Origin: Candidatus Harrisonbacteria bacterium
GTDB lineage: Bacteria; Patescibacteriota; Minisyncoccia; UBA6257; 02-FULL-45-10c
DNA length: 64,000 nt
NCBI GenBank assembly: GCA_016214655.1
Contig: JACROC010000005.1
Coordinates: forward strand, 131,078-195,077
Direction: 5' to 3'
Made by a program: the position numbers and the translations under genes. The notes below the pieces were generated by a model. The model had not been told where the DNA came from. It made no database searches and saw only the letters and a program-made list of their open reading frames with translations. Below, one piece after another: positions 1,837-23,347 of this stretch. Position 1 is the first letter of the stretch. Each line of letters opens with the position of its first letter.

Positions 1837-1930
1837 AGATTTAGAATTAATAATTAATAATTGACCTTTAATCATATTATAGCAGAATATGCTATAATTA
1901 ATATGGTCGAAGAAGTTTAATAAATCATAT

Positions 1931-4349: not shown

Positions 4350-6596
4350 TTATAATCGATGCCTACGGAGAAGAATAGCGTTGACGGCTACAATAACCGT
4401 TGAAAGCGACATAAAAACTGCGGAAATCGCCGGCTGAAGCAGAATACCTTTTGATACCAAAACTCCGGCCGCCAATGGCAAAGCTATAAGATTATAACCG
4501 GTAGCCCAAAAAAGATTTTGGATCATTTTATTATAGGTCAGACGGGAAAGTTTAATAATTTTTACGATATCCCGGGGGTCATTTCTCACTAGAATAATCC
4601 CTGCCGATTCAATCGCCACATTAGTACCGGCGCCGATTGCTATTCCCAAATCCGCCTGAGTAAGAGCCGGGGCATCATTAATGCCGTCGCCAACCATAGC
4701 AACTTTTAAAGCACGCGATTGAAGCCGCTTAACTCGATCAACCTTATCTTCCGGAAGCACCCTGGCAAAATATTCGTCTATCTGCAATTCATTGGCCACC
4801 CAATGCGCAACTTCTTCGGAATCACCGGTAAGCATTGCCGTTCTTACTCCCAAATTTTTTAATTCTTTGACTGCTTCTTTGGATTCTTCCCGGATTATAT
4901 CCGCCAGCACAATAACGCCAGCCGGCTGATCTCCGATTATTACATAATTAATCGTTTTGCCTTGCCGGGCTAAATCCAAAATCTGAGATTTCAATTCCTC
5001 CGGAATTTCCGCTTTAAACTCTTTTAAAATCTTTTCTCCGCCAACCGCCACTGTAATACTCTTCACCACCCCCCTGACGCCCTTACCCGGCAATCTCTCA
5101 AAATTTTCTACCGGCAATAATTCCACCCCCAATCTCTCAGCTTCTTTGACTATCGCCTTACTGGCAAAATGCTCAGACCGATTATCCACTGAAGCGGCGA
5201 ATTGCAGCAACTGGTATCCGGCAGCCGGAATATCCGTCCTCCTGGGCATAGTAAATTGCGACAAAGCAAATTTAAATATAGGAAACTGCGGATTGGGAAT
5301 TATTTTATCTATGCCATACTCGCCCCTGGTAAGAGTTCCGGTTTTATCAAAAAGCACGACATCAATCTTACGGGCGGCTTCCAGCGCCAGTCTTTGCCGC
5401 ACCAACAATCCATTTTGCGCGGATTTTGTGGTAGATATGGAAGCCACCAGCGGAACAGCGAGGCCCAAAGCATGCGGACAGGCGATTACCAGCACGGCAA
5501 CAAAACGCTCTAAGGCGAAAATCGCTCCCGCCCCGACGAAAATCCAATACCAAAAAGAGGATAGTCCGCTGACAATCGCTATAATAGTCAGATAGAATGC
5601 GGCGCGGTCGGATAAAATTTGAATACGCGATTTAGACGCTTGCGCTTCTTCCACCAATCTCATAACTCCGGATAAAAATGTATTTTCTCCTATTTTAGTT
5701 ATCCGTACCTTGAGGCTGCCGTCGCCATTGATGGTTCCGGCAATTACTTCGTCATTTTTTTTCTTTGCAACCGGCTTGGATTCACCGGTAACCATGGCTT
5801 CATTAATGTCCGAACTTCCATCAATTATCATCCCATCCGCCGGAATTTTTCCGCCAGGCCTGACCAAAACTACATTATCAACCCTCAATTCACTAATAGG
5901 AACGATCTTGGTTTTATCGTTCTTCATTAATATCTCCGCGGTATCCGGCAATAATTTAGAAAGTTCTTTAAGAGCGCGCTGCGCTCCCTGCACTGACCGC
6001 ATTTCTATCCAATGACCCAAAAGCATTATGGTAATCAAGCTTGTCAGCTCCCAGAACAAAGTGCTTGGCTCACCGGTAATGGTACCTAGCCGAATTAAAA
6101 GAATTTGTAAAACACTGTAAATATACGCCGCCCAGATTGCAATGCCAATCAAGGTCATCATCCCGGGAAGGCGTCCCTTAACCTCCAGCCATGCCCCGCG
6201 CGTAAATATCCAGCCGCCATAAAAAAATACAATTGTACTCAGGGCAAGCTGAATATAATCAGAACCGAGAAATGCCGGAGCTTGCCAACCCAAAAATCTT
6301 GCAGGAAGTTCCGAATAAAGCACTACCGGAATAGTCAGGGCTAAGCTAATCCAGAATTTCCGCAAAAACATCTGAGTACTGTGCCCAGCATGTTTGTCCG
6401 CAATAGATTCAGCATCGACGGATTTCCCTTCTTTTCTCTCTGCGGGTACCAGCTTCATTCCGCACTCCGGGCAAAGACCCGGTTTTTGCCGCTGAATCTC
6501 CGGATGCATCGGGCAGGTATAAATTATCCCCTCAGACACCTCTTTATCTTCATTCGCCATCTGATTATTTTTATTTTCCATATTGCAACAATCCAT
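4350..6596 (-). CDS. heavy-metal (copper) translocating P1B-type ATPase
   Basis: DKTGTLT phosphorylation motif, GDGINDAP hinge, TGES actuator motif, and the TM metal site ACPHALGL (CPH). The N-terminus has TCPMHPEIQRQKPGLCPECGMKL, a Cys-rich metal-binding module. Confidence 0.9.
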   Translation of the reverse strand: MDCCNMENKNNQMANEDKEVSEGIIYTCPMHPEIQRQKPGLCPECGMKLVPAERKEGKSVDAESIADKHAGHSTQMFLRKFWISLALTIPVVLYSELPARFLGWQAPAFLGSDYIQLALSTIVFFYGGWIFTRGAWLEVKGRLPGMMTLIGIAIWAAYIYSVLQILLIRLGTITGEPSTLFWELTSLITIMLLGHWIEMRSVQGAQRALKELSKLLPDTAEILMKNDKTKIVPISELRVDNVVLVRPGGKIPADGMIIDGSSDINEAMVTGESKPVAKKKNDEVIAGTINGDGSLKVRITKIGENTFLSGVMRLVEEAQASKSRIQILSDRAAFYLTIIAIVSGLSSFWYWIFVGAGAIFALERFVAVLVIACPHALGLAVPLVASISTTKSAQNGLLVRQRLALEAARKIDVVLFDKTGTLTRGEYGIDKIIPNPQFPIFKFALSQFTMPRRTDIPAAGYQLLQFAASVDNRSEHFASKAIVKEAERLGVELLPVENFERLPGKGVRGVVKSITVAVGGEKILKEFKAEIPEELKSQILDLARQGKTINYVIIGDQPAGVIVLADIIREESKEAVKELKNLGVRTAMLTGDSEEVAHWVANELQIDEYFARVLPEDKVDRVKRLQSRALKVAMVGDGINDAPALTQADLGIAIGAGTNVAIESAGIILVRNDPRDIVKIIKLSRLTYNKMIQNLFWATGYNLIALPLAAGVLVSKGILLQPAISAVFMSLSTVIVAVNAILLRRHRL

Positions 6597-6599
6597 ATA

Positions 6600-6869
6600 T
6601 TATTTTCGCTTTGAAAGTTTATAAATATCTAAAATCTCTTTCACTGACCTTGAAATGCTGCCCGACCTCATCTGATCCGCCGTATGCGTAGCAAGATGAT
6701 GCTCTAAAATCAGGTCCTCAATACCTGAAAGCGCCTGCTTTACCGCGGAAGATTGATGCAAGATCGTAACACAATATGCATCCTCATCGATCATTTTTTG
6801 AAGGCCGCGTATTTGCCCTTCAAGTATTTTTAATCTCCTCATGGCCCTTCTCTTTACCGCTTCTTTCAT
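6600..6869 (-). CDS. csoR: CsoR/RcnR-family metal-sensing repressor
   Basis: RLKILEGQIRGLQKMIDEDAYCVTILHQSSAVKQAL matches the DUF156/CsoR helix pattern with Cys/His ligands. Start moved to MKEAVKRR because the promoter and operator lie inside the longer ORF. Confidence 0.8.
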   Translation of the reverse strand: MKEAVKRRAMRRLKILEGQIRGLQKMIDEDAYCVTILHQSSAVKQALSGIEDLILEHHLATHTADQMRSGSISRSVKEILDIYKLSKRK

Positions 6870-6903
6870 ATTCCCATGATACCCTAGGGGGGTATTACTT
6901 GTC
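6863..6903 (-). promoter_or_regulatory. sigma70-like promoter with an embedded CsoR-operator-like inverted repeat
   Basis: The minus strand reads TTGACA-agtaATACCCccctaGGGTATCAT-gggaat-ATG. That is a -35 TTGACA, an 18-nt spacer and a -10 TATCAT. The GC-rich inverted repeat ATACCC-N5-GGGTAT (6879-6895) overlaps the spacer and the -10. Confidence 0.6.
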
Positions 6904-6908
6904 AAGAC

Positions 6909-8123
6909 CTATTCATATCTTAATGCCTCCGCCGGTTCCATTTGAGCAGCTTGCCGAGCCGGCAACAAACCGGAAACTATACCGGTAATAAAAGTTATAA
7001 TTAAAATAACTAAAAATCCGAAGAGGTCTAAGGCGGCAAATGAAAATAATCCCCGAATACCAAATTGAGCTGCGATTAATCCGACCAAATAAGCTGCAGT
7101 CACACCTAAAATAATACCCAAAATTCCGCCAACTAAACCTATCATCCCGGACTCGATCAAAAAGAGCGACAGAATACTGTCGGAAGATGCGCCAATTGCT
7201 TTCATAACTCCTATTTGCTTTGTCCGTTCCAAAACCGCTGTGTACATCGTATTCATAATGCCGACAGCGCCAACTAATAACGAGATAAGGGCAATAACAA
7301 ACAGAACTGTTTCCACGATAGTTAAAACATCCCCGATAATATTGCCGATTTTCTCCGGAGTCAGCACAGAAAAATCTTCCACTGCTTTTTGCTGGCTTAA
7401 CTGAAATTCAATCTGCTTGGTAACTAAATCCGGATTAACACCCGGTTCAATTTTAATAGCGGCAGAAATAATCCCCGGCCGCGCACCAGTTAATTGACGG
7501 AACATATTTAAAGACGCATATACAACGTTATCCGCCATTTGCTCCCCAATCGGCGAAAGCACGCCCACCACCTTCATTCTTTTAGATTTTAAAATTATTT
7601 CCTCGCCAACTCTCATTTTATTTTTAAAAAGATCTTCCGCAATCCTATGGCCGATTACTACTTCATTGATATCTTCATTTTCCGGCCAGCGACCATCGTG
7701 TAATTTTAATCCCTGCGACTCTTCATAGATTAATTTATATTTACTCCATGGGGCACCGTGAATCATGACGGGTTTTTTCTCGCCTCGAAATTCGCTATTA
7801 ACAACCGCTATATCCATTGGCGCCACAAATCTGACGCCTCTTATATTCGCCAAAGCCAGGATATCCTGATCTCTGAATCTGGCTCCACCCACTAACGTAG
7901 CGACAGATTCTATAGGATTAGTAACCTTACCCGGACGGATAATAATTAAATCAGATCCAAACATTTGCAGGGTCTTAGCGATACTATTTTTAATTCCGGA
8001 ACTTAGGGAAAGTATAATAACTACCAGCATTATTCCGATAATAATGCCCAAAATCGTGAGCCAACCGCGGATCGGGCGGTAACGGATACTTTTTAAGGTT
8101 AAAGATAAAAATTTCTTTAGCAT
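6909..8123 (-). CDS. ABC transporter permease, MacB/FtsX type
   Basis: N-terminal TM, a large periplasmic domain, and a C-terminal FtsX-like three-TM bundle. Adjacent to a MacB-type ATPase and an HlyD adaptor. Confidence 0.85.
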   Translation of the reverse strand: MLKKFLSLTLKSIRYRPIRGWLTILGIIIGIMLVVIILSLSSGIKNSIAKTLQMFGSDLIIIRPGKVTNPIESVATLVGGARFRDQDILALANIRGVRFVAPMDIAVVNSEFRGEKKPVMIHGAPWSKYKLIYEESQGLKLHDGRWPENEDINEVVIGHRIAEDLFKNKMRVGEEIILKSKRMKVVGVLSPIGEQMADNVVYASLNMFRQLTGARPGIISAAIKIEPGVNPDLVTKQIEFQLSQQKAVEDFSVLTPEKIGNIIGDVLTIVETVLFVIALISLLVGAVGIMNTMYTAVLERTKQIGVMKAIGASSDSILSLFLIESGMIGLVGGILGIILGVTAAYLVGLIAAQFGIRGLFSFAALDLFGFLVILIITFITGIVSGLLPARQAAQMEPAEALRYE

Positions 8124-8126
8124 AAA

Positions 8127-8984
8127 CTATTCGGTATAAATCTTTTGATGAACTTGGTGATTTCGCACTAAACGACCATCTTTTAAAGTAATGACTTGAT
8201 CCGCCTTTCCGGCAATATCTGCATCGTGAGTTATGATAATTAAAGTTTTTTTCTGAATTTTATTCAGATTAACCAGCATTTCTAAAATTTTATTGCCAGT
8301 TGCAGAATCCAAATTTCCAGTCGGCTCATCACCTAAAATTATTTTCGGGTCATTAGCCAAGGCCCGAAGCAACGCAGTCCGCTGCTGTTCGCCGCCAGAT
8401 AATTCAAAGGGGCGATGCGTCATCCGCTCCTTCAAGCCAGCCTCCCGGAAATTCGCCTCCAATCTGCTCTCATCAATCTTTGTCCCGGCAAATACCAGCG
8501 GCAAAATCACATTTTCATAAGCGGTCAGCCAGGGTATTAAATTATATTGTTGGAAAACAAAGCCAAAAACACTGGAACGAAGCTCAGCGCGTTCTTCATC
8601 CGAGAACAAAGAAATATCTTTTCCTTTAAAAAAAATTTTACCGGAAGTCGGGCGATCCAAGAGTCCAATCATATTCAAAGCTGTGCTTTTTCCGGAACCG
8701 CTGGCGCCAATGATAGAAACAAAATCTCCTTCCCAAACATGGAGATCCAATCCCTGCAATGCCATAGTTTCCGCCTTGCCGGTATTAAATACCTTCCACA
8801 CCGCACTTAGACGGATCAATGGTTCGCCCAGGAATTTTTCCGGATTTTTTTTAAACCGGCCCCCACATCCCCCGCTGCAAAAATAAACCGATTTCCCCTT
8901 ACGAATAATAGTAATAAGATCGGAAAATTCCGCGAGATCCATTCCGCAAACAGGATCAATTTTTTGATCAGACCATCCGCTCAT
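8127..8984 (-). CDS. ABC transporter ATP-binding protein (MacB/LolD type) with an N-terminal YHS/TRASH metal-binding domain
   Basis: Walker A GASGSGKST, signature LSGGEQQR, Walker B IILGDEPT. The N-terminal 50 aa are DPVCGMDL...YFCSGGCGGRFKKNPEKF. Confidence 0.85.
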   Translation of the reverse strand: MSGWSDQKIDPVCGMDLAEFSDLITIIRKGKSVYFCSGGCGGRFKKNPEKFLGEPLIRLSAVWKVFNTGKAETMALQGLDLHVWEGDFVSIIGASGSGKSTALNMIGLLDRPTSGKIFFKGKDISLFSDEERAELRSSVFGFVFQQYNLIPWLTAYENVILPLVFAGTKIDESRLEANFREAGLKERMTHRPFELSGGEQQRTALLRALANDPKIILGDEPTGNLDSATGNKILEMLVNLNKIQKKTLIIITHDADIAGKADQVITLKDGRLVRNHQVHQKIYTE

Positions 8985-9002: not shown

Positions 9003-10571
9003 TTATTCAGCCGAAACAGCAACCGTCTGTCCGTCTGTAAGTCCCTTGATTACCTCAACCAATTCTCCGTCAGATATTCCGGTTTCTATTTCGCTATCCA
9101 GTAAAACGCTTCCGGTACCCGCAGCTTTCTGTCCCGACGGCAACACTTTGACGAATTTTTTTCCTCCTTTTTCATAAACCGTCAAAGCTGGAATTTTAAT
9201 AACATCATTTTTAAAAGAAGTCATTATTTTAAGATCCGCACTCATGCCATTACGAACCGCTTCATCCGACTTCTCTAAATAAATAATAATCCGGTAATAT
9301 TTATCGCCTTCCTTGATAATTTCTTTCGGTTCAATAGAAAATACCTTGCCCTTAAAATCCTGCCCGGGAAACGCGTCAAACTGAACCGCAACATTATTGC
9401 CGTTAACTTCCCGGATTTTATATATATCCAACTCGGAAACATCGGCTTGAATTTTTTGACCCAAGGCATTCAAGGAAACTGCCGGCTGGCCCGGACGGAA
9501 AATTTCCCCCTCTTCCAGCCAGATCTTATTCAACATCCCCTGGGCCGGAGCAGATAATATTGATTTCCGCACTTTATCTCTTACTGAAGCAATCTGACTT
9601 TCTGCTTCTTTAATTCCAGCCTGAGCCGCGTCAAGATCTTCTTTTCGCGTACCAGATTTCTTAAAAATCAATTCATTCTCAGCGACCGATAAACTAGATT
9701 CGGCGCTCCGTAATTTTTCCTGCGCCGAAGAAAAATTGGTCAAAGCCGTATTGATATTGGCCCGAGCCGTAGATACATCTGATCGCCAGGAATCAATTGC
9801 AGTTTGGGTAAGATTAGCTCCGGGAGTAAGAGTGTTAATCGCGATTGCCGTAATATCCAAAAATTGTTTAGTTTGATTTAAATTCTTATTAGCCGTAAAA
9901 GCATAGTCACTTAAATTACTGCTTTTGTTAAGCAGAGACAGCGAAATATTCCAAGCAACCAGCATTGATTCAATTGCTACCCGCCCAGATTCCAAACTGG
10001 TTTTAAGCTGGCCATCCGATAATGAAAGGTTAACTTGCGGGTTAGAACTTCGCGGATTACTGAACCACTGATCGGTTTTACTTTTAATGGCATCGTCGGA
10101 TTTTGTATAAGCATCCTGAATTTTATCAATCAATCCCTGTTTGGCATCTTCTAATGCGATTTTAGCGCTGGAAACCTTTGCTTCCGAGATGTTTATCTCT
10201 TCCTGAGTTGCGCCCGATAAAAGCTTATTTAAATTCGCTTTTCTTTGATCCAAAACAGCTGATAATTTTTGTATTTCTATCTCCAAGTCGGTGGTTTCCA
10301 ATTTTACCAGCGGGGCACCCTTAGAAACGCTTTGTCCTTCCTTAACATAAATCTTTTCAATAATCCCGGAAAAGGGAAGCTCTAAGTTAAATTCTTTTTG
10401 TGACACGACTTCCCCCCTTACTCTCACCACTTCCTGAATACTTCCGCGTTCAACCGGGAATAACAAAAACGCCGGTTTTTCCTGCCGGAAATATTTCTGG
10501 TATACCCAAAAAGAGACAGTAGCCAACCCCGCAACTACAATTAAAATCAAATAATAAGATAGTTTTTTCAT
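9003..10571 (-). CDS. HlyD/MacA-family periplasmic adaptor with an extended coiled coil
   Basis: Signal-anchor, lipoyl-like motifs (KEGQSVSKGAPLVKL), a long alpha-helical hairpin and C-terminal beta domains. Confidence 0.75.
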   Translation of the reverse strand: MKKLSYYLILIVVAGLATVSFWVYQKYFRQEKPAFLLFPVERGSIQEVVRVRGEVVSQKEFNLELPFSGIIEKIYVKEGQSVSKGAPLVKLETTDLEIEIQKLSAVLDQRKANLNKLLSGATQEEINISEAKVSSAKIALEDAKQGLIDKIQDAYTKSDDAIKSKTDQWFSNPRSSNPQVNLSLSDGQLKTSLESGRVAIESMLVAWNISLSLLNKSSNLSDYAFTANKNLNQTKQFLDITAIAINTLTPGANLTQTAIDSWRSDVSTARANINTALTNFSSAQEKLRSAESSLSVAENELIFKKSGTRKEDLDAAQAGIKEAESQIASVRDKVRKSILSAPAQGMLNKIWLEEGEIFRPGQPAVSLNALGQKIQADVSELDIYKIREVNGNNVAVQFDAFPGQDFKGKVFSIEPKEIIKEGDKYYRIIIYLEKSDEAVRNGMSADLKIMTSFKNDVIKIPALTVYEKGGKKFVKVLPSGQKAAGTGSVLLDSEIETGISDGELVEVIKGLTDGQTVAVSAE

Positions 10572-11275
10572 GTTACTTTAATTCTATACCATTTTAGATG
10601 TTCATACACACTCGGCCAATAAAAGCCAAAGCTTAACGCGAAAATTAATTCTTCTATTGGCACGCCGAAGATTAAAATGCCAGAAATAGCGGACAAATTC
10701 CAAACTTGCTCAACATAACCAGGATAAAGAATGGTCAAGGTTAAAAAATATATGAAATATAAACCAATAAAAATAATAGCGCTGACAAACATCTTATTTT
10801 TAAGATCGGGGCGGCAATACCGGGTAAAAAGACCGGCCCCAACTAATGCCACAGACGCGGAATAAATATGATTCCAATCAGTGAAAATTAAAAGCAAGAC
10901 AAAAATTATCGGCCCAGAAACTAATGCCCAAAAATGATATCGGTGACGGGAATGCCGGCGCTCCTCATCAGACATCGCTTCATGCAAGGTTGGGAAAAAA
11001 TTCTCATAGATAACTACTGCCAATCCGCCTATTCCGAAAGAAAATAAAAAACTTTCAATATCAAATCCTGTTCTCAACGCTAAATCAAATAAAGACGGCG
11101 GGCTCCAATATTCCGGAACAAAAAGCGGCTCAGTTGCGCCAAGAAGCGATGTCCACAAGCTAACCCTCAACATCTCTTTACGGCTTTCTTGATTCCGCAA
11201 AAAAAAGTAGACCGCGAGCCAGATGGCCAAAAGCATTAGACTCCATACCAGCCAAGCGTAGTGCTGATCAAACAT
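10568..11275 (-). CDS. polytopic membrane protein, possibly a lycopene-cyclase-domain family member
   Basis: Seven hydrophobic helices. GVPIEELIFALSF resembles the PxEE motif of CrtYc/Yd-type domains. The family call is weak. Confidence 0.35.
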   Translation of the reverse strand: MFDQHYAWLVWSLMLLAIWLAVYFFLRNQESRKEMLRVSLWTSLLGATEPLFVPEYWSPPSLFDLALRTGFDIESFLFSFGIGGLAVVIYENFFPTLHEAMSDEERRHSRHRYHFWALVSGPIIFVLLLIFTDWNHIYSASVALVGAGLFTRYCRPDLKNKMFVSAIIFIGLYFIYFLTLTILYPGYVEQVWNLSAISGILIFGVPIEELIFALSFGFYWPSVYEHLKWYRIKVT

Positions 11276-11280
11276 AATTT

Positions 11281-11541
11281 TTATAAACGGTTATATAACG
11301 AAGCAAAAAGCCAGCCGCCTAGGTAAGAATAAACTACCGCCTGAATAAGTCCAGCCACAAATCCCCCGAAGGTTACAGCTACATCACCGGCAAACTTATC
11401 TACATTTACCAGATGAACTAACCAACCGAACGATTGCAAAGAAAACTCTGGCCATAAATACACAAATGCGGCGCAAATTAAATAGACAATACCCATTCCT
11501 AATGCAGCGGCTTTCGCAAATTTTGAAACATCTAATTGCAT
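11281..11541 (-). CDS. small membrane protein
   Basis: 86 aa with 2-3 TM helices, in an operon. Confidence 0.4.
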   Translation of the reverse strand: MQLDVSKFAKAAALGMGIVYLICAAFVYLWPEFSLQSFGWLVHLVNVDKFAGDVAVTFGGFVAGLIQAVVYSYLGGWLFASLYNRL

Positions 11542-11557
11542 AAATATTTTTTTAAAA

Positions 11558-12706
11558 TTAATTTAACGACCCTTTATTTAATACTTTTAAGACAAGTGAG
11601 GCGATATAATGGCCGTTAATAAAAGCATCCTCTGTGCCGGCCACATTGTGGTCATTAGCTAAAAATAGATTAGGTTCGGGATTTTCGTTTATATATTCAT
11701 TCCCATGGAAGAAAAGCGCCGGCCGCCACTCGCCCTTAGCAATGATCTCCCGTTCATCGAAATATTTGGCAATATTATCTTTGCTCCCGTAAAAATAGAG
11801 ATAGGTGCCATTTGGTTCACGAGAAATCGCCGCCTCTTCTTCTATCGGAAAAAAATTATACCAGGGAACATTGTATTCTTTTTTAATCCTTCCCCGTAGA
11901 TGGTAATAATTTACATTAATTCCGTCTTTAATTCTTTGCGGCTTTACTAATTGATTAGCAATATTCATCGGCGTGGCAAGGACTAAAATATCACCACCGT
12001 AGGCTTTGCCGGATTTGGTTTCGATTTTAAATTTTTGATTATCCAACCGCCTTACTTTTACAACTGAATCCAAAGTTATTTTATCCCGAAAAGGCGCCGT
12101 AAGCTTTCCAAAATTGAATTTAAAAGACCAGCTCGGGACAATAATTGTGTCCAAAACAGCGAGAAAGATAGCCGCAGAAACTTCCCGCGGATTAGTAAAA
12201 TACGCTGCCCATAAAAATTGCTCCAAATATTCCTTAGTTAGATCTTCCAATCCCTTTTCTTTTATATAATCCGCAGCTTTTTGATGATAGAATTTTTTAA
12301 GATAGGGGTCGGCTTCTATTAATTTTTGATAAGAAACATCCAGCGCTTGCTTGCGAATTTTTTGCACGTGGCTGCGGAATTTAAAAAGTTCCCGCAATAA
12401 TTTTATTCCAGCCGGAATATGCTTCAGCATCCGCAAAGAATAAGCATGATAATGCTCCTGGCCGCGATGAAAATGTGCCTTGGCAAAATGCATCAAATTC
12501 ACCTTTTCAATGTAAGGCAGAATATTATGGCAATCAGCGGTAACGTAATAAGCTCCATAATTCGTCTCGCCATCCGGAGAAGTCTTGATGCGCCCACCGA
12601 TATCTTCGGTAATTAATCTAAAATCGGCGCCATTCTCCTGAAAACGCTTGGCGCATCCGAGACCATTCAATCCGCCGCCAACAATTATGATCTTATAATG
12701 CTCCAT
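11558..12706 (-). CDS. FAD/NAD(P)-binding oxidoreductase (amine-oxidase / desaturase-like)
   Basis: N-terminal Rossmann dinucleotide motif IIIVGGGLNGLGCA...E. Confidence 0.7.
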   Translation of the reverse strand: MEHYKIIIVGGGLNGLGCAKRFQENGADFRLITEDIGGRIKTSPDGETNYGAYYVTADCHNILPYIEKVNLMHFAKAHFHRGQEHYHAYSLRMLKHIPAGIKLLRELFKFRSHVQKIRKQALDVSYQKLIEADPYLKKFYHQKAADYIKEKGLEDLTKEYLEQFLWAAYFTNPREVSAAIFLAVLDTIIVPSWSFKFNFGKLTAPFRDKITLDSVVKVRRLDNQKFKIETKSGKAYGGDILVLATPMNIANQLVKPQRIKDGINVNYYHLRGRIKKEYNVPWYNFFPIEEEAAISREPNGTYLYFYGSKDNIAKYFDEREIIAKGEWRPALFFHGNEYINENPEPNLFLANDHNVAGTEDAFINGHYIASLVLKVLNKGSLN

Positions 12707-12716
12707 AGCTCATTTA

Positions 12717-12971
12717 TTATCTTAAGCCCTCAAACTTTTTCCGAAACTGGTCTTCGGTCGCTCCGCCCATCATAAAAAATTCATCATTAACCAAAATGCC
12801 AGGGCTTGAAAGAATGCCATGCTTCTGAACCAGCGCCTGTCCTTCCGGCGTAACCATATCTATTTCCTCAACAACTAAATTTGAATTTTCTTTTAACAAT
12901 TTTTCTAAGACTTTCTTGACTGCAATGCAATGGGTACACCCCTTTGGCCTGATCAACGTTACTTTAATCAT
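12717..12971 (-). CDS. small thioredoxin/glutaredoxin-like protein
   Basis: 84 aa with the CxxC motif (GCTHC) near the N-terminus, and a Trx-fold length. Confidence 0.7.
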   Translation of the reverse strand: MIKVTLIRPKGCTHCIAVKKVLEKLLKENSNLVVEEIDMVTPEGQALVQKHGILSSPGILVNDEFFMMGGATEDQFRKKFEGLR

Positions 12972-12989
12972 AATTTTTTTATTAATTTA

Positions 12990-13181
12990 TTAGCCGACCT
13001 TATTCTCGGAAGAATCTTCTGTAATATATTTATTGGGATTTTTATCAAACTCTGCCGGACAGCTATCACAACAAAAATAATACTTTTTTCCTTTATATTC
13101 CCGAACCCACCCCATTTTTTCCGCAAACTCCTTGTCCGCAGGAATTTTCATAACCGGACAAATTATCTGGTCTTCCTTCAT
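12990..13181 (-). CDS. YHS/TRASH-domain metal-binding protein
   Basis: CPVMKIP...YYFCCDSCPAEFDKNPNKY. Confidence 0.75.
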   Translation of the reverse strand: MKEDQIICPVMKIPADKEFAEKMGWVREYKGKKYYFCCDSCPAEFDKNPNKYITEDSSENKVG

Positions 13182-13199
13182 AAAAGTTATTTAAATCTA

Positions 13200-13397
13200 T
13201 TAATTTTTGATATTCATTGACCTTTTGTGACGCATCCGCCGCGAAATAATAATTGTAAAAACAATAATAAGCAATGCTGTAATCGGGCCTGCCAATTCAG
13301 CTTCGGCCAAATTAGTTATTTCCTCTTCCGCCTCGCCGAGTTCATGAGCAAACGCGGATATCGGCACTAAAAAAAGATAAGTAATAAAAAATTTCAT
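13200..13397 (-). CDS. small exported/membrane protein
   Basis: Signal peptide (ISAFAHE), an acidic stretch, a TM helix and a basic tail. Confidence 0.4.
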   Translation of the reverse strand: MKFFITYLFLVPISAFAHELGEAEEEITNLAEAELAGPITALLIIVFTIIISRRMRHKRSMNIKN

Positions 13398-13404
13398 TTT
13401 TGTT

Positions 13405-14394
13405 TTATTGATCTAAATTATTATATTCCTTATTATAAGCCGCATCCCATAAAATAATTGCGCTAATGATGGCGGCAAAAACAATCCAGGGAATAATCCC
13501 GCCAATCCCCTCCGGCAAATTCAATGACGCTTCAATGATGGATGATTCGGCAATTTTCGGGAAAATAATTTCCAGCGCCCTATTCCAAGACTGATGAATG
13601 ATTGAGTTTTCGAACCAGGCCATTCCAAATGCGCCATAAGTGAAAATAAACGATCCTAATCCAACCAATGCCCAAGCAACCCAATGTTTAACTTTTATCT
13701 GGTAAGCACTCAGCCAATTCATGGCATTAACTCCCAAAACCGCCAAGACTACAAAAAATAATAGCGGCACCATTCTTCCTAAGCCATGCAACGCGCCCAG
13801 CGATGCGCCAATAACCGGATTTCCCAGCGTAGCGACATAACCAAAAATAATATAAAAAGCCGGGTTAGGACAACCCACTCCGGCGTTACCAAGGAAAAAC
13901 CCCAAAAAGAAACTGCGGATATAATCATTTTTATCCTGTAAAAAAACCGGGAGGATTGTTTGCTTAAAGGGTAATTTGAATTTAATCAGATCAAGTTCTG
14001 AAAGACCGAAAATCAACGCCGCCATCCCGCCGGCAATAAGCATATAACTGATGATCTTATATAACTCAATAAAACCGCCGAGCCAACCCAAGGCCATGCC
14101 ATAGATAGTAAAAGTTAACGTTAGTCCTGCTCCAAAAAGCAATGCCATTAGAATCCCCTTGCCATTTTTTTTAGAAAGCGCAAGTGGCACAATGATAAAT
14201 ATCAATGGGAAAGTGCATGGCAGAAAAATCATGGAAATGCCGGCAAGAAATGCCAGAGACAAGCCGGGAATAAACTGCGGCGAGGTCCAAAGGCTAAAAA
14301 GACCGATTAGAATAATCGAAAAAAGGATAAAGGCAGCAGCCACTAGCCATATTTTTATGCTATTCACTGGCATATTTATAATTATATACCACAT
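13405..14394 (-). CDS. divergent CcdA/DsbD-like thiol-disulfide transporter
   Basis: Polytopic membrane protein with two intramembrane Cys-Pro style motifs (IFLPCTFP and GVGCPNP), as in the DsbD/CcdA core. Its start overlaps the upstream stop by 13 nt. Confidence 0.55.
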   Translation of the reverse strand: MWYIIINMPVNSIKIWLVAAAFILFSIILIGLFSLWTSPQFIPGLSLAFLAGISMIFLPCTFPLIFIIVPLALSKKNGKGILMALLFGAGLTLTFTIYGMALGWLGGFIELYKIISYMLIAGGMAALIFGLSELDLIKFKLPFKQTILPVFLQDKNDYIRSFFLGFFLGNAGVGCPNPAFYIIFGYVATLGNPVIGASLGALHGLGRMVPLLFFVVLAVLGVNAMNWLSAYQIKVKHWVAWALVGLGSFIFTYGAFGMAWFENSIIHQSWNRALEIIFPKIAESSIIEASLNLPEGIGGIIPWIVFAAIISAIILWDAAYNKEYNNLDQ

Positions 14395-14564
14395 CCCCCG
14401 CCGCCTTTTATCGGCGTTGAAATTTCTTTTTGATCAGCCTGCCGAACCCCTTGCGTCTTGGCAGAAACTTGTTTACTGACCGAATAAATCCAGGAAGCAG
14501 AAACCAATAACGCGGCCATGACTATGCTTGCCGCTAAAAGATTATTCGCTGAATTATTCTTCAT
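14382..14564 (-). CDS. 60-aa signal-anchored protein ending in GGGGCGI
   Basis: One N-terminal TM helix, a polar linker and a C-terminal Gly4-Cys-Gly-Ile. Translationally coupled to the CcdA-like gene. Confidence 0.45.
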   Translation of the reverse strand: MKNNSANNLLAASIVMAALLVSASWIYSVSKQVSAKTQGVRQADQKEISTPIKGGGGCGI

Positions 14565-14583
14565 AATTTTTAGTTATTGATTC

Positions 14584-15501
14584 CTATAACCCGCAACCAC
14601 CTCCGCCGCCACCTTGAACCGGCTGTACTTGGGAAAGAATTCTTTGAAAACCAAGTGCGCTGGAAAAATCAGCCCCCAAAACTTCCCGGGGGTTAACAAC
14701 ATCCCAAGCAACCCCTTTTTGTTTAAAGTATTGCGCAATCGTCAAATAAGTATCCGGAAACCAATAAGAATTTACCCGGAGCGCAACCTTATACATCTCG
14801 GCTTCAGAAATTCCCTGCGAAGCCATAAGCTCCAAAAGACCAAGCATGGCCATGCCGTGATTGCAATCGGGAAAATAAGTTGAATTTCCACAGCACGGGC
14901 GATAAACATTTTTTGAAACTCTTTCCACTAAAGCCTTCTGCTCCGTAGTCAGCCGTAAAAATTCATGCGCGGAATAATGGTCCATCGCATCACCGACGGC
15001 CGCTGTCCATCCTCCGGTAGAAGCAAACCTGCCGGCGCCGCCGTAACGCGGATCTGACATCGGCCCCTCCTCCAAAACTTCACTTTTATTGCCGAGCCCC
15101 AAACCCCACAGCAAATTCAAAAGAAAACCTGAATTTTCCGGGGTAATCTTCAATCTTCCATTATCGGCTCCGTAAAGCAGTTTTCTTTCTTCTTCATTTA
15201 TTCCGCCCCGCTGGGAATAAATTTCCTCAAATTTTTCTTGATCCATCACGCCGCTTTCCGCCAGCCGCCTGCCCAGATCTCCCCACACTACTGGCAACTC
15301 TACGCCGTTGGACGGCAAAACCCGCTCCTCAAATTCCGTTTGTGAACCGATTTGCTTTGTAATCGCTGCCGTCTGGCGGCTAACCGGAGCCCCCAAACCA
15401 TTAGTGTATATCCATGCAAAAGCCATAATCACTAATGATAAAATCAGGCTAAACGGTAAATAATTCTTTTGATTTTCTATATTTTGATTTTGTTCTTCCA
15501 T
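14584..15501 (-). CDS. signal-anchored Cys-rich extracytoplasmic protein ending in GGGGGGCGL
   Basis: 305 aa with an N-terminal TM helix, the conserved-looking cluster RPCCGNSTYFPDCNHGMAM, and a C-terminal Gly6-Cys-Gly-Leu. Confidence 0.6.
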   Translation of the reverse strand: MEEQNQNIENQKNYLPFSLILSLVIMAFAWIYTNGLGAPVSRQTAAITKQIGSQTEFEERVLPSNGVELPVVWGDLGRRLAESGVMDQEKFEEIYSQRGGINEEERKLLYGADNGRLKITPENSGFLLNLLWGLGLGNKSEVLEEGPMSDPRYGGAGRFASTGGWTAAVGDAMDHYSAHEFLRLTTEQKALVERVSKNVYRPCCGNSTYFPDCNHGMAMLGLLELMASQGISEAEMYKVALRVNSYWFPDTYLTIAQYFKQKGVAWDVVNPREVLGADFSSALGFQRILSQVQPVQGGGGGGCGL

Positions 15502-15508
15502 AAATTTA

Positions 15509-15898
15509 TTAATTGTTTAATTTACACCTGCTCTCTTTAGCTAAATTCTCCAAGCCCTGTTCTCCGACTAATTTTTTGCCATCCGGAAAAATCCAAGTCG
15601 GGAAAGACTCAATTCCCGCAGCCAAACAACGCTTTGGATCTTTTGGACATTCAACATAAGGCACGAACCGGAAAGAGCGTCCGAATTGTTTTTTCTCGTT
15701 CTGGCAATGCGAACACCAATTCGCTCCATACATTACAATTTTTTCATCCGCTAAACATTGCGCAAATGAATCCATGATAGTATCGGTATTTCTATTATTC
15801 CATGAAATCCACCAAATGGAAAAGGCGGAAACTAAAACTATAATTGAAGCAATATAAGTTTTCTCAAGAAAATTATATTTATTCATCGCAGCAATCAA
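15509..15898 (-). CDS. membrane-anchored thioredoxin-like protein
   Basis: N-terminal TM helix. YGANWCSHCQNEKKQFG is the CxxC Trx-fold motif of the type fused to VKOR/DsbB analogs. Confidence 0.7.
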   Translation of the reverse strand: MIAAMNKYNFLEKTYIASIIVLVSAFSIWWISWNNRNTDTIMDSFAQCLADEKIVMYGANWCSHCQNEKKQFGRSFRFVPYVECPKDPKRCLAAGIESFPTWIFPDGKKLVGEQGLENLAKESRCKLNN

Positions 15899-16376
15899 CC
15901 AATTTATTTACGATATCCTGCAACGTCCATGGCTTCTCTTCCGCCGCGGCCTTTTTAAAACCGGAAACATCTATCAGCTTCAGCCGCAGACCCCAGAACA
16001 TTGAATAAATTTTATAGGCTTGCGAAAAGACTTCTTGCGCCTCGGTTTTTTTATTTTCCGAGTGAAGTTTAGTGCCGACTTCAATAAGTCTCATGGCAGT
16101 TGCAAGTAAATGCTTAGAAATACACCAGGTTTCTCCCTCGTGTTTATCAATCATCTTTCCTAGCAATACCTTTCTGATCGCGCGGGCATCATTTAGCAGA
16201 TCAAAATATTCCGGCTTACCAGTTTTAGCTCCCGTGAAAAAGAAATGTTCTTCCAAACTAATCAGGTTCATGACCGCAATACTCAAATCCTCTTCCGTTG
16301 ATAAATCGATTTGTCCAGATTTCTTCAATGCTTCAATTTTTTTAATCAATGCTTCCAAATTTTTTTGATTATCCAT
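15879..16376 (-). CDS. cytoplasmic helical protein ending in DCCDE
   Basis: 165-aa ORF with no TM helix and a C-terminal vicinal Cys pair. It overlaps the downstream gene by 20 nt. Confidence 0.5.
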   Translation of the reverse strand: MDNQKNLEALIKKIEALKKSGQIDLSTEEDLSIAVMNLISLEEHFFFTGAKTGKPEYFDLLNDARAIRKVLLGKMIDKHEGETWCISKHLLATAMRLIEVGTKLHSENKKTEAQEVFSQAYKIYSMFWGLRLKLIDVSGFKKAAAEEKPWTLQDIVNKLVDCCDE

Positions 16377-16382
16377 ATCAAT

Positions 16383-17210
16383 TTACAAAAAGAAAATTAA
16401 TAAACCCAAGACGACCATTGCTATGCCTCCCCAAAGACGCATATTATGGGTTTCTGCCTTTTTCCATTCCTGCACCTTAGCCAAAAGCAATTGATTGCTT
16501 GCAATCAGCAGAATGATAACTAATGGCAAAATGAAAATCGCGTTATATAGAAGGAGATAGCCAAGACCGCTGATAAATGTCGCTTTATCATGCAGCAAAC
16601 CAAGAATCATCAGATACGGTCCTCCAGTACAAGGAAACTCGCATAACCCGACTAAAACACCAAGTAAAAAGGCCGTTGGCGAAGACGCCTTTTCCATTAA
16701 TTCTGCCATTTTATGATGCGCCGCCTGCGGTATCCGCAATTTGACCGGAAAAGCCGGGAAAAACTCATTCATCAGATTAATCAATCCTAAAACCACCAGC
16801 AATCCCGCCCCTACTTTTGCCATAAAATGCGGGGTGTTAAAAAGATGAAGAACCTGCAAAATCCCGAGGCCGATCAAGATATAAACCAGAAAAATGCCGA
16901 ATATGTACATTCCGCCAATCTTAAGGATACCCGACCGCAGTTTACCGATACTAAGCAAAAAAGCGATCGTTAAAATTAGAATCGAAAAAGCGCAGGGATT
17001 AATACTATCTAGCAAGGAAGACACCAATACCAGAGGCAGCAGCCATTTCCCGCCATTGCTGAAACTCCACAAAAATGCCGTGCCGGCTCCGGTAAAACGG
17101 AAAAAGAAAAATAATCCGGCCAGCAAAATAACCGCCCCAACCAAAAATCCTAATTTTGATTTTGCATTATTGCCGCTTTGATTATTAAGCGGCTCATGAC
17201 AATTAGACAT
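16383..17210 (-). CDS. ccdA: cytochrome c biogenesis-type thiol-disulfide transporter CcdA
   Basis: Six-TM protein with DSINPCAF and CEFPCTGGPY motifs. Confidence 0.8.
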   Translation of the reverse strand: MSNCHEPLNNQSGNNAKSKLGFLVGAVILLAGLFFFFRFTGAGTAFLWSFSNGGKWLLPLVLVSSLLDSINPCAFSILILTIAFLLSIGKLRSGILKIGGMYIFGIFLVYILIGLGILQVLHLFNTPHFMAKVGAGLLVVLGLINLMNEFFPAFPVKLRIPQAAHHKMAELMEKASSPTAFLLGVLVGLCEFPCTGGPYLMILGLLHDKATFISGLGYLLLYNAIFILPLVIILLIASNQLLLAKVQEWKKAETHNMRLWGGIAMVVLGLLIFFL

Positions 17211-17231
17211 AGTTTTCGCAAAGATTAATTT

Positions 17232-17744
17232 CTACGGCCGGACCACTGCCGTAAATCCCAATTCAACTTCTCCGGAATCGGTTTCTACATAAACCGAGCG
17301 CTGGATCGGACCCACGCCAGCCGGACCATGCGCCGCCGGATCAAAAGTGGCTTCAATTCTTACTTCCTCGTCTCCGGAAATAACTTGGTTAATACGCGGC
17401 ACAACTCCATGCCCGGGCATGCCGAACGGCCCGCGAGCCTTCCCATCCTTCAGCATCAGCGTCGCCGTGGTGCACATGCAGGAAGTATAAATTTTATTGA
17501 TCGTCAGCGGATTCTCCGATCTATTTTTAAGAGTGAATACCTTGCTCACTTTGCCATCAGCCATAGAAATATCGCCAAAATCAAAATTAGACTCATCAGC
17601 AACTAATTTATTTTCCGAAACCGATGACACGGATGCCGTCTGAAGATTCTTGCTTGAAGAATCTGAAGATGCCAACCAAATAATTCCGCCAAAAACCAAG
17701 AAAGTAACGAGGGTGATTATAATGACTTCTTTGTAATGTTGCAT
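17232..17744 (-). CDS. DUF1573-domain exported protein
   Basis: Start moved to MQHYKEV. FDFGDI...FTLKNRSENPLTINKIYTSCMCTTA matches the DUF1573 pattern. Confidence 0.7.
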   Translation of the reverse strand: MQHYKEVIIITLVTFLVFGGIIWLASSDSSSKNLQTASVSSVSENKLVADESNFDFGDISMADGKVSKVFTLKNRSENPLTINKIYTSCMCTTATLMLKDGKARGPFGMPGHGVVPRINQVISGDEEVRIEATFDPAAHGPAGVGPIQRSVYVETDSGEVELGFTAVVRP

Positions 17745-17836: not shown

Positions 17837-18244
17837 TTAAGCGCCCGAAACTAACGCCGGACTATTCTCATGCAAAGCAATCCAACTGAGTAAAGGTTGA
17901 TTGATACTGCCCAGAACCACTGCCGCGCCCAATCTCCAAAAAGAATCTGAATGCGGCGAGACTAGAGATGCCGTAAAAGCTAAGCCAAGCAAAATAAAGG
18001 CCAATGCAGTTAGAAAAATCGAAGCCCAGCCCGCCACCGCTCTAGTAAAGGTGTGAAATGCCTGCATATGGAATCCAACCACCGCAAAAGGGTTGTTGCT
18101 TGTGCAAATCTTACCCTGAAGCATTTCGGCAACGCAGCCATGCCCATGAGCCATTGTAGAAAAACCAAAAATAGCAATAGCGGCAAGAACTACAATAAGA
18201 AGAATGGCCAGTATCGATTTCATATGATTAAAGTATACCACCAA
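17837..18244 (-). CDS. membrane protein with a His/Cys-rich loop
   Basis: 135 aa with 3-4 TM helices and MAHGHGCVAEMLQGKIC. Confidence 0.45.
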   Translation of the reverse strand: MVVYFNHMKSILAILLIVVLAAIAIFGFSTMAHGHGCVAEMLQGKICTSNNPFAVVGFHMQAFHTFTRAVAGWASIFLTALAFILLGLAFTASLVSPHSDSFWRLGAAVVLGSINQPLLSWIALHENSPALVSGA

Positions 18245-21958: not shown

Positions 21959-23347
21959 TTATACCCCAAATTTATTTTTATCTTCCCGGTTATAAAGCAA
22001 AGCCCAATCCTGCGAAGCATTTCGCAAAAAATCGCCTAATTTTAAGCTGGACGGCTTTTCAAAATCTTCTTTACTGATAGTATGTAATTCAATGTTACGG
22101 AAAGGATAAGATGAAGAAGGGCCTAAATAACTGCCAATCGCATCATGAATTAACTTTTCCTCCTGGCCATGCGGACCTTTTAAAAACCCATTTAAAGATT
22201 GCAATAAATCCCATCTAGTTTCTACCACTGCCAAAATATCAATATCCGATTGCAATTGCTTATAGCCGCGCGGGATACTCCCATAAAAATAAACTTTAAC
22301 CAGACTCCGGCCAAAAGAAGATTTTAACTTTTCCAGGATGGAATGCAAATCTTTATCCACCTCCGGATCCACCAATATTTCTGAACCTAAATTTATATCT
22401 TCTTGTCTTTGGATTTTCACTCCGCCAGCCCACCTGGTTGGCCGGCCGCTGGCCAAATCTTCCATCACCCTCCTTTCATTAAGCTTTTGCGGTAATTGTA
22501 AAACCACCTTCCCGTCCGCCAGCGATAATTCTTTCGGGACCTCTTCAGCTGGCGCCTGCTCCAAGACTTTCAGTAGCGACTCCGGATTCTCCCGTAAAAT
22601 TTCTTCAAAGATGGGGAGATTCTCCAGTAAAATTGTCCTGCTGATAATTCTTAATAAATTGCCGTCCTGATATTCACCGGCAACAAAAATCGTCTCATTA
22701 TTTCTATCGCGCGACTGGACTTTAATAAAAGAAACTAATCTGGAAGGATCTTTTTTAGAGACTACAATGCCATGCGTGACATAATCAATAGATTTTTCTC
22801 CAAACTCCGGCTGGGCATCTTCCCGGAAAACAGTCTCAATAATCGGATCTTTCTGGCCAACATTTAAATAGTTATATTGCTTATGTTCTTCTCCTTTGAG
22901 ATTAGATCCGGTTACAATCCGCGAAAGCCACACTTCCCGCTTCTCCTTAACTAAATCCGAAAACTGGGACTTCTGCCTAATCTGAAGATTTTTAACATCA
23001 AAGCCCGCATCGAATTCGGGCGGATTTCCTTCAGCCGCTCCCAGAAAAGAAAAAAATAAGTGCGGGGAATCGCCGCGATTGCTCTTAATAATCACGTATT
23101 CCCTTTGGGAAAGCGGGTTAATAAAAGACTTGCGATTAACTTTTCTGCCCACATACTGATACGGATGCCTTTCGGAACCTGTCTCCTGGGCCATTTCTGC
23201 CCTGGTAACCAATTGACGGGCTGGCAAAGCTTCATAAGGAATTTTAAAATCAGTGCCAGCTAAAACTTCCGGCATTAATTTTTTATTAAGCTTTTCCCAA
23301 AGATTCTCTTCGGGTGATTCTTTTATTAAAGTTTCTTCTTTAAACAT
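21959..23347 (-). CDS. protein with a C-terminal minimal nucleotidyltransferase (Pol-beta-like) domain
   Basis: VKVYFYGSIPRGYKQLQSDIDILAVV is the G[SG]-x(9-13)-DxD NTase signature. The ~340 N-terminal residues are unassigned. Confidence 0.6.
   Translation of the reverse strand: MFKEETLIKESPEENLWEKLNKKLMPEVLAGTDFKIPYEALPARQLVTRAEMAQETGSERHPYQYVGRKVNRKSFINPLSQREYVIIKSNRGDSPHLFFSFLGAAEGNPPEFDAGFDVKNLQIRQKSQFSDLVKEKREVWLSRIVTGSNLKGEEHKQYNYLNVGQKDPIIETVFREDAQPEFGEKSIDYVTHGIVVSKKDPSRLVSFIKVQSRDRNNETIFVAGEYQDGNLLRIISRTILLENLPIFEEILRENPESLLKVLEQAPAEEVPKELSLADGKVVLQLPQKLNERRVMEDLASGRPTRWAGGVKIQRQEDINLGSEILVDPEVDKDLHSILEKLKSSFGRSLVKVYFYGSIPRGYKQLQSDIDILAVVETRWDLLQSLNGFLKGPHGQEEKLIHDAIGSYLGPSSSYPFRNIELHTISKEDFEKPSSLKLGDFLRNASQDWALLYNREDKNKFGV

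Follow-up and report, generated by a model that had tools for sequence, protein, structure and literature searches.

In mercury resistance, Hg(II) is moved by a relay of paired cysteines that runs from the CxxC of MerP to the CC of MerT and on to the CC tail of MerA. In the TlpA-Sco/CoxB and YcnL-type pathways, an extracytoplasmic thioredoxin (Trx)-like protein fed by CcdA keeps the cysteine ligands of copper proteins reduced. CcmH, which stands beside DsbD/CcdA and CcmG in System I, is a three-helix-bundle thiol-disulfide oxidoreductase of non-thioredoxin type, and its cysteines lie on the loop between helices 1 and 2. The Scs system (ScsABCD) of Salmonella, Proteus and Caulobacter combines a copper-linked DsbD-class conduit with Trx-fold partners, confers copper tolerance and was proposed to shield envelope thiols during copper stress (PMC3322552). 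At the C-terminal GGCGG of SoxY, the cysteine carries covalently bound sulfur intermediates between enzymes (PMC6067878). Here, we describe a gene cassette in a 64-kb window (the whole stretch of DNA that was analysed) from a metagenome-assembled genome of Candidatus Harrisonbacteria. None of the Scs, System I, SoxY and Mer systems matches this cassette fully, and each fails at least one of the defining features that were tested. The best-supported reading of the cassette is an envelope thiol relay that is linked to copper and composed of several undescribed and very widespread protein families.

An earlier reading made from the letters alone (the sequence-only reading) had described ten packed genes on the minus strand, and open reading frame (ORF) calling in the window recovered all of them, together with the motifs given for them. 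The termini DCCDE (g3), GGGGGGCGL (g5) and GGGGCGI (g6) were exact. In transcription order, g1 to g10 (Table 1) are separated by 21, 6, -20, 7, 19, -13, 7, 18 and 18 nt, that is, by at most 21 nt or by overlaps, and another 10 nt separate g10 from the gene for an FAD oxidoreductase. The idea of a single ten-gene unit had to be replaced by one of two modules that recur separately, together with inserts specific to the lineage (g6, g8, g9 and the FAD gene). Module A comprises up135, the DUF1573 gene g1, the CcdA-like gene g2, g3, g4, g5 and g6. Module B comprises the DsbD_TM gene g7, the small g8, the YHS gene g9 and the small Trx gene g10, and it is found behind csoR in fewer relatives. The gene list was also incomplete, as the conserved gene for 135 amino acids (aa), up135, had been overlooked. 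Nor is each piece individually known, as had been stated, since g3, g5, g6 and g8 belong to no described family; searches of Pfam, NCBIfam and PDB sequences gave no match for any of the four.

The co-orientation of these genes is by itself uninformative because 68 of the 81 ORFs in the window lie on the minus strand; GC skew is negative throughout. The tight spacing is informative. Gaps of 30 nt or less were found in all 17 same-strand pairs between 4350 and 20082, compared with 19 of the 37 pairs elsewhere in the window. Consensus scans of the window returned promoter-like sites (35, with 39 expected) and terminator-like sites (18, with 19 expected) at chance level, and the transcription unit is therefore not defined by them. 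The real support for the arrangement is the conservation of gene order in relatives.

Relatives were compared at 85 loci, namely the 80 best from a scan of GTDB species representatives and five places reached via three g5 homologues. The five extra places include two near-duplicate pairs, and one member of each was dropped for clustering. At least 581 species-representative genomes carry a relative of g5, and among the best 80 loci every title that names a lineage names Patescibacteria or the Candidate Phyla Radiation (CPR). The order that recurred on the same strand was up135 (49 loci), DUF1573 (58), g2 (48), g3 or a protein ending in NCC, sometimes g4 (13), and g5. The opening gene of the conserved cassette, up135, immediately precedes DUF1573 on the same strand in 49 of 83 loci, and g2 comes directly after DUF1573. 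The slot behind g2 holds g3 in 26 loci or a CPIC..NCC protein with four to five transmembrane (TM) helices in 17, and never both. Conservation of the gene order, which the sequence-only reading had named as a point to check, was thus found among the 85 relative loci.

The same loci were used to follow the link to copper. A Cu P-type ATPase gene was found within 8 kb of g5 in 57 of the 85 loci and csoR in 40, and both numbers are lower bounds, as many contigs end nearby. The neighbouring ATPases are of the CPC+HMA (CopA) type or of the CPH+HMBD (CopB-like) type. The cassette opens with csoR and its TACCC-N5-GGGTA box in at least 12 loci; the order in L005 is csoR, DUF1573, CcdA-like gene, mini-protein gene, g5, SHOCT gene and copA. 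These results indicated that the copper link of the cassette, as proposed earlier, is solid. This steady linkage with CsoR and CopA/CopB gives the "hypothetical proteins" g5, g3 and up135 a concrete function that can be tested. No description of the cassette was found in the literature on copper and thiol systems of CPR bacteria, on DUF1573 with copper or on CcmH with copper.

The family founded by g5 contains more than 7000 clusters at 90% identity, all of them "hypothetical" and without a Pfam domain, and 599 clusters at 50% identity. The protein is made up of an N-terminal TM helix, a novel FASTGGW domain, a CcmH-like three-helix bundle and a Gly-rich tail ending in C-G-L. In an alignment of 38 members, 59 columns were invariant, including FASTGGW and RPCC-x-N-x3-FPDCNHGMAM. 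Four cysteines were invariant, namely C203, C204 and C213 and, at position -3 of the C-terminus, a last one. The tail, a Gly/Ser-rich stretch followed by C-[GSD]-[VIAL] and most commonly by C-G-V, was present in 120 of 120 homologues; it is doubled in a few of them, and a few loci end in CGVQ.

An AlphaFold model of g5 (predicted local distance difference test, 87.5; predicted template modelling score, 0.80) is helical, with an N-terminal TM helix and a disordered tail. In this model, C203, C204 and C213 lie on the loop that is equivalent to the cysteine loop of CcmH, between helices 186-196 and 214-228. The LRCxxC motif of CcmH is not found in g5, which has RPCC[GND]N in its place and no CxxC, and none of the 38 members matched PF03918 even at E 10. 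Membership of g5 in the CcmH family was dropped, as the profile-profile comparison was not significant and a match to PF03918 was missing. Judging from the model, g5 appears to be CcmH-like in fold and to stand outside the CcmH family, and its link to cytochrome c maturation would be one of ancestry or analogy rather than of absence.

Fusions and neighbours of distant g5 relatives bear on its location. One relative is a lipoprotein with an N-terminal rhodanese, whose CRSGSM loop is intact, and its gene adjoins a DUF411/CopG gene and a CopY-type regulator gene. Another is fused to the CPIC...NCC protein with four to five TM helices; this fusion therefore points to a functional link of the NCC protein with g5 and fixes the topology, with the CC tail inside and the g5 domain outside. 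Several further relatives carry a membrane domain of ~200 aa with AACPVCG, and downstream of one such gene, for a fusion of the CPVCG domain with g5, a cupredoxin, a rhodanese and a Ferric_reduct-type membrane protein are encoded. Because of the lipoprotein signal and the g5 fusions, the g5 domain is placed outside the cytoplasm. CopG/DUF411 genes were found in 4 and rhodanese genes in 2 of the 85 loci.

A deletion paralogue of g5, g6 keeps the TM helix and the Gly-rich tail and has lost the globular domains. The 65-aa equivalent of g6 in L005 resembles the neighbouring g5 at the N-terminus (57% identity, E 3e-15) and in the tail (E 2e-4). Such mini-proteins were considered as a general part of the system and rejected, as they were found in only two loci.

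Conserved motifs were also found in the other proteins of Module A. In up135, an extracytoplasmic loop of the form H..C-x9-C..H is combined with a C-terminal W-L-x-L-x-E-x-S-P motif. The g1 protein scored 48.2 bits against Pfam DUF1573 (cut-off 26.1) and has the CxC motif. Across the DUF1573 proteins of the relatives (58 of the 85 loci), TSCMCT, GMPGHG and DPAAHGPAG are invariant, TSCMCT in 56 sequences. Selenoprotein relatives of DUF1573 have U-G-C at the CxC site (PMC9312934), and selenocysteine (Sec) at this position therefore marks the site as redox-active. Cytoplasmic g3 has an invariant EGETWC..KHLL motif and a disordered C-terminal D-C-C-D-E, and more than 7000 homologues of it were found at 70-83% identity, some of them from contigs of high GC content that were binned as Betaproteobacteria. 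The proteins g3, g5 and up135 have no family assignment and are unusually well conserved, with 55-80% identity between lineages in which divergence is otherwise fast.

For g2, the earlier name CcdA applies at the level of architecture. The protein has the cysteine in TM1 (DSINPC) and a CxxxC in TM4, within the conserved C-E-F-P-C-T-G-G-P, but all its profile scores were below threshold (SfLAP, 29.2 vs 35 bits; ArsG, 29 vs 200; DsbD, 16 vs 330), and Pfam gave no DsbD_TM match. In a pairwise alignment of g2 and g7, the TM4 cysteines line up in a weak match (E 0.95), and sequence search found no solved relative of either protein. The match of g4 to Pfam Thioredoxin was borderline (23.6 bits, cut-off 23.5). 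Its closest solved relative is the Trx domain fused to the VKOR of Synechococcus (3kp8, E 5e-16; 3kp9, E 4e-15; residues 55-123). The VKOR quinone reductase domain itself is missing: g4 has one TM helix, and Pfam found no VKOR in the cassette genes.

The trio of DUF1573, CcdA-like and g3 genes was also found on two betaproteobacterial contigs of high GC content (L088, 5848-7936; L089, 6682-8501), at ~75% amino-acid identity and among CusCBA/CusF genes. The order on these contigs is DUF5676, DUF1573, CcdA-like gene and g3, followed by a gene for an unrelated protein of 313-320 aa and one for an AhpC/TSA redoxin. The 313-320-aa protein was compared with g5 and is not a homologue. Genes for CusF, CusCBA, an HMA copper ATPase, MsrA, a SHOCT protein and a lycopene-cyclase-domain protein are neighbours of the trio. 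Mis-binning seems unlikely given the GC content, and the trio implies either cross-phylum transfer or extreme constraint. These results indicated that the trio is a cross-phylum accessory module of copper islands and that g5 is its Patescibacteria-specific partner. The sharing suggests a mobile copper-resistance accessory module, which is open to study in cultivable bacteria.

The mechanism that we propose starts from what the data show, namely the gene content, the motifs, the fold similarity, the conserved gene order and the copper neighbourhood. The ten genes make up the upstream half of a copper-resistance island and would form two thiol-relay modules, with g5 handling Cu(I) and/or lesions; we give this a probability of about 45%. 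As a cysteine-lined membrane protein, g2 would link a cytoplasmic Cys-Cys partner to tethered Cys/Met/His proteins on the outer face. The cytoplasmic partner, with its flexible terminal Cys-Cys, would be g3 or, in other genomes, the membrane protein ending in NCC. The outer-face proteins would be up135, DUF1573 with its CMC and, in some loci, g4, a PDI-like thioredoxin with CSHC. The relay would end at g5, with the CC-x8-C-x-H-x-M-x-M cluster on its CcmH-like bundle and with a SoxY-like C-terminal arm. Arm and cluster may capture Cu(I) that is released by the pump, and/or they may resolve Cu-thiolate and disulfide lesions on surface proteins, and g5 would be re-reduced through g2. Module B (g7, g10 and g9) would serve as a second and conventional reductant conduit. 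We infer the topology of the relay, the direction of electron or metal flow and the binding of copper.

A relay for thiols or for Cu(I) outside the cytoplasm is thus what the data support best. Repair of thiol damage, which the sequence-only reading had favoured, is plausible as one of several mechanisms that fit. Direct handling of Cu(I) is at least as likely because of the CC/C/H/M/M, CMC and CC motifs and the company of CopG, cupredoxin and YHS proteins. Such invariant motifs (CC/C/H/M/M, CMC and the terminal CC) are typical of the ligand sets for soft metals. The cargo of g2 could be electrons, as in CcdA, or metal, as in the Mer relay.

Several observations weigh against the proposed mechanism. 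The best structural match of g5 is CcmH, but this match was not significant (Foldseek E 2.4), and neither was the alignment of the two by hhalign, which placed RPCCGNS..DCN of g5 on RCPKCQNQ..DSN of CcmH (E 0.052, probability 1%). As g2 scores equally against the efflux permease ArsG and against DsbD-type proteins, it may move metal rather than electrons. Metal binding alone, with no redox cycling, could explain the vicinal CC, CMC and H/M motifs equally well. The Trx-like g4 occurs in just 13 of the 85 loci, always directly before g5 where it is present. Some g5 genes are isolated and lie away from any copper gene (L001/L002). The window has a single CsoR box, located before csoR-copB and downstream of g1 to g10, and because of this position we infer copper induction of these ten genes here from the relatives.

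A more far-reaching version, which we regard as doubtful, takes the g5 family as a new class of extracytoplasmic carrier. A thiol module derived from CcmH and a swinging Cys arm in the style of SoxY would shuttle Cu(I), Cu-thiolate or persulfide between the pump, DUF1573 and the CcdA-like partner. Together with g3, this would make a complete cysteine relay for copper across the membrane that is near-universal in Parcubacteria-type Patescibacteria and occurs in part in proteobacterial copper islands. If true, it would be the main surface copper handling of cells that are poor in glutathione and have no periplasm. Should g5 prove to bind Cu(I) or to pass it on, a new type would join the extracellular copper chaperones or redox partners, and the CcmH fold would have been reused outside cytochrome maturation. 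A large share of bacterial diversity belongs to the Patescibacteria, whose envelope redox and metal biology is almost unstudied; the cassette occurs in several hundred of the species genomes and in thousands of metagenomic sequences.

Of the alternatives to the proposed mechanism, a Mer-like relay of thiol ligands survives best, and we consider it unlikely. In such a relay g2 would act as a transporter rather than as a conduit for electrons. Cu(I) or another soft metal would pass from the CC tail of g3 to the TM1 and TM4 cysteines of g2 and on to the CMC of DUF1573 and the cluster and arm of g5, which would give an efflux or hand-off route independent of the ATPase. Like the established Mer system, the cassette has paired cysteines on outer-face, membrane and cytoplasmic CC-tail proteins. 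The best full-length weak match of g2 is ArsG, and SfLAP and other members of the LysE/DsbD superfamily are transporters as well. In 43 loci, the cytoplasmic partner that adjoins g2 has a terminal vicinal CC and is not a thioredoxin. An extra cysteine in TM4 of g2 (CEFPC), the MDCC or HSCC start of several neighbouring ATPases and the company of Cus and Cop genes around the betaproteobacterial trio would also suit a metal relay. However, cysteines in TM1 and TM4 are the hallmark of CcdA, Trx-like partners (g4 and AhpC/TSA redoxins) stand alongside in many loci, the Sec at the CxC of DUF1573 relatives points to redox chemistry, and the same islands already hold copper pumps. Moreover, no homology to Mer proteins was detected, a reductase is missing, and the context is one of copper rather than mercury.

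Next in standing, and likewise improbable, is pure repair or isomerisation of envelope disulfides under copper stress, as in Scs or DsbD-DsbC, with no component that binds copper. The CcdA-type conduits would reduce g4, DUF1573 and g5, and these would correct non-native surface disulfides whose formation is catalysed by copper. Two CcdA-type proteins together with Trx-like proteins would fit such a pathway, as would the C-x-H-C active site of g4, which is PDI/DsbA-like and closest to the VKOR Trx domain, and the likeness of g5 in fold to CcmH, whose dedicated function is disulfide reduction. A precedent with a copper link and a DsbD-class protein is the Scs operon (PMC3322552), and its extracytoplasmic Trx-fold partners are a further likeness to the cassette. 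On the other hand, g2 and g7 are bare TM cores of the 6-TM CcdA type without the alpha and gamma domains of ScsB, DUF1573, a VKOR-type Trx and the CcmH-like g5 take the place of ScsC/ScsD as partners, and the cassette has a dedicated cytoplasmic CC-tail protein. No sequence relation of the cassette to Scs proteins was detected. The absence of CxxC from g5 also argues against pure disulfide repair, as does its vicinal CC, which together with C, H, M and M forms a set of ligands typical for Cu(I). Metal-type Cys/His/Met motifs abound in DUF1573, up135, g3, g9 and the accessory proteins, g4 is missing from 85% of the loci, and the neighbouring CopG, cupredoxin and YHS proteins are copper binders.

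Quite improbable is a role of g5 and g6 as carriers of sulfane sulfur, in which the arm cysteine would bear a persulfide loaded by a rhodanese and the sulfur would trap copper as Cu-S or be used in another sulfur transfer outside the cytoplasm. The tail pattern of g5 resembles that of SoxY: the C-terminus is Gly-rich and flexible, Gly-Gly-Cys-Gly-X, with a single cysteine at -3 that was preceded by Gly/Ser in 120 of 120 homologues. The fusion of a rhodanese with g5 described above, the rhodanese genes that adjoin g5 in L087, L048 and L057, and the top NCBIfam match of g7, the rhodanese/DsbD fusion protein TsoB, point in the same direction. However, rhodanese genes occur in few loci only, and the cassette has no sox, sqr or persulfide dioxygenase genes. 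SoxZ is also absent from the loci, the last residue of g5 is V, I, L or A and not Gly, and the g5 model is helical rather than a SoxY beta-sandwich. The regulator ligands are C-H-C or C-H-H and do not follow the C-x-C pattern of CstR.

The TlpA-Sco and YcnL-type pathways serve cuproenzyme assembly or copper uptake, and Sco/Cox genes were not seen at the cassette loci. Detoxification is pointed to because of the regulon context of CsoR, efflux ATPases and a MacAB-like pump. The reducing branch of System I resembles the cassette in the order of a conduit, an anchored Trx-like protein and a three-helix-bundle thiol protein. It differs in that g5 has RPCC-x8-C in place of LRCxxC, an additional N-terminal domain and a C-terminal Cys arm, and in that the loci have a copper pump as genomic partner and no heme-handling or apocytochrome genes. 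No CxxCH motif was found in window ORFs of at least 80 codons, and among the ORFs of at least 100 aa in the 85 loci it occurred in 10 of 1926, each time singly and in a zinc-ribbon-like context. Ordinary cytochrome c maturation by the reductive branch, from CcdA through a CcmG-like Trx to a CcmH-like protein, is thus hardly credible in spite of the mirrored gene order, in agreement with the sequence-only reading, as Ccm, Ccs and Res genes were absent from the Pfam-annotated loci, g5 has neither LRCxxC nor a PF03918 match, the cassette associates with copper pumps, and a general lack of significant respiratory capacity was reported for CPR bacteria (PMC5220378).

The CsoR box before csoR is the sole convincing regulatory element in the window. 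This palindrome, ATACCCTAGGGGGGTAT, lies just upstream of csoR and overlaps the best minus-strand match to a promoter (-35/-10, 6905..6876), and in ~21 relatives a TACCC-N5-GGGTA box precedes csoR by 11-13 nt. Among 33 CsoR sequences, from the window and 32 related loci, the ligand fingerprint was C-H-H in 26, the window copy included, and C-H-C in 7. The canonical Cu(I) fingerprint of CsoR is C-H-C. The C-H-H variants keep the TACCC-N5-GGGTA operator and adjoin copper ATPases. The ATPase of the window has the membrane CPH motif (ACPHALGLA), an N-terminal HMBD and the N-terminus MDCCNME. A start with MDCC or HSCC is shared by this ATPase and those in L012, L040, L047 and L073, and it echoes the terminal CC of g3 and of the NCC protein and the small TRASH/His-rich proteins ending in CCH. 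Vicinal cysteines at the ends of chains seem to be a feature that recurs in these islands. Mercury resistance was considered as the function of the island and rejected, as MerR and MerA are missing from it.

Table 1. Features of the cassette and its surroundings in the 64-kb window (TM, transmembrane).
Feature	Position	Strand	Description
1061-aa protein	23351-26536		No confident domain
462-aa protein	21959-23347		Nucleotidyltransferase domain
up135	17837..18244	-	135 aa, two TM helices; no Pfam match
g1	17232..17744 (or to 17807)	-	Membrane-anchored DUF1573 protein, Ig-like
g2	16383..17210	-	1+6-TM protein, DsbD/LysE superfamily, CcdA-like architecture
g3	15879..16376	-	165-aa cytoplasmic helical-bundle protein
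g4	15509..15898	-	TM-anchored thioredoxin-like protein, CSHC
g5	14584..15501	-	305 aa; founding member of an undescribed family
g6	14382..14564	-	60-aa mini-paralogue of g5
g7	13405..14394	-	Canonical CcdA-type DsbD_TM protein, LPCTFP and GCPNP motifs
g8	13200..13397	-	65 aa; signal peptide, acidic stretch, C-terminal TM helix
g9	12990..13181	-	63-aa cytoplasmic YHS/TRASH protein, FCCDSC motif
g10	12717..12971	-	84-aa cytoplasmic Thioredoxin_3/MJ0307-like protein, CTHC
FAD gene	11558-12706	-	FAD/amine-oxidase-like (Pfam)
DUF5676 gene	11281-11541	-	2-TM protein (Pfam)
Cyclase-domain gene	10568-11275	-	Lycopene-cyclase-domain membrane protein (Pfam)
HlyD	9003-10571	-	HlyD (Pfam)
YHS-ABC	8127-8984	-	YHS-fused ABC ATPase, N-terminal YHS (Pfam)
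MacB	6909-8123	-	MacB permease (Pfam)
ATACCCTAGGGGGGTAT	6879..6895		CsoR operator-like palindrome, box of TACCC-N5-GGGTA type
csoR	6600..6869	-	CsoR-family repressor (Pfam Trns_repr_metal, 80 bits)
Copper ATPase	4350..6596	-	P1B-type, CopB-like (Pfam E1-E2_ATPase, Hydrolase, HMBD)
SHOCT gene	1570-1938	-	SHOCT-domain protein
Cupredoxin	1143-1535	+	Cupredoxin

In Module B, g7 scored 33.2 bits against Pfam DsbD_TM (PF02683; cut-off 27.1). Homologues of g7 recur behind csoR and are paired there with a Trx_3 protein like g10 (L026, L053 and L057) or with a TM-anchored AhpC/TSA redoxin (L004, L009, L010, L060 and others). The g10 protein scored 36.9 bits against Pfam Thioredoxin_3 (cut-off 24.8) and is likely the cytoplasmic partner of g7. 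The YHS protein g9 (41.4 bits against Pfam YHS, cut-off 30.3) was found in 3 of the 85 loci. For g8, no family match was obtained in Pfam or NCBIfam, and the gene is not conserved in the 85 loci. The predicted cleavage of g8 at AFA|HELGE leaves His as the first residue, which could form an N-terminal His metal site.

Downstream of g10, the FAD oxidoreductase, the YHS-fused pump, csoR and the Cu-ATPase were present as described earlier, and the DUF5676 and cyclase-domain genes had been left out of that description. The DUF5676, cyclase-domain, YHS-ABC, HlyD and MacB genes recur near g5 in relatives, and the FAD gene does not. The cyclase-domain gene was found in 7 loci and the DUF5676 gene in 24, and both are also present in the betaproteobacterial island L088. 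Cyclase-domain, DUF5676 and FAD genes lie inside the copper island of an organism that is not expected to make carotenoids. An N-terminal YHS on the ABC ATPase was found in 11 related loci, and the trio of HlyD, YHS-ABC and MacB genes adjoins the cassette in L003/L004 and L023. Just past the ATPase gene lie a cupredoxin gene and a gene for a SHOCT-domain protein; within 8 kb of g5, 5 loci have a cupredoxin homologue and 17 a SHOCT protein.

The window yielded no tRNA genes. Upstream of the island lie the genes for the 1061-aa and 462-aa proteins listed in Table 1. An undescribed pair of genes also recurs in the islands (L004, 10887-11851; L010, L013 and L044; also the betaproteobacterial L088). 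One encodes a membrane protein with ISCCAHYLVN, and the other an exported protein of ~150 aa with the motifs LDTHS..DL and GGHHRE. Genes for DUF302, DoxX, ICMT-like and DUF3105-like proteins recur in the islands as well.

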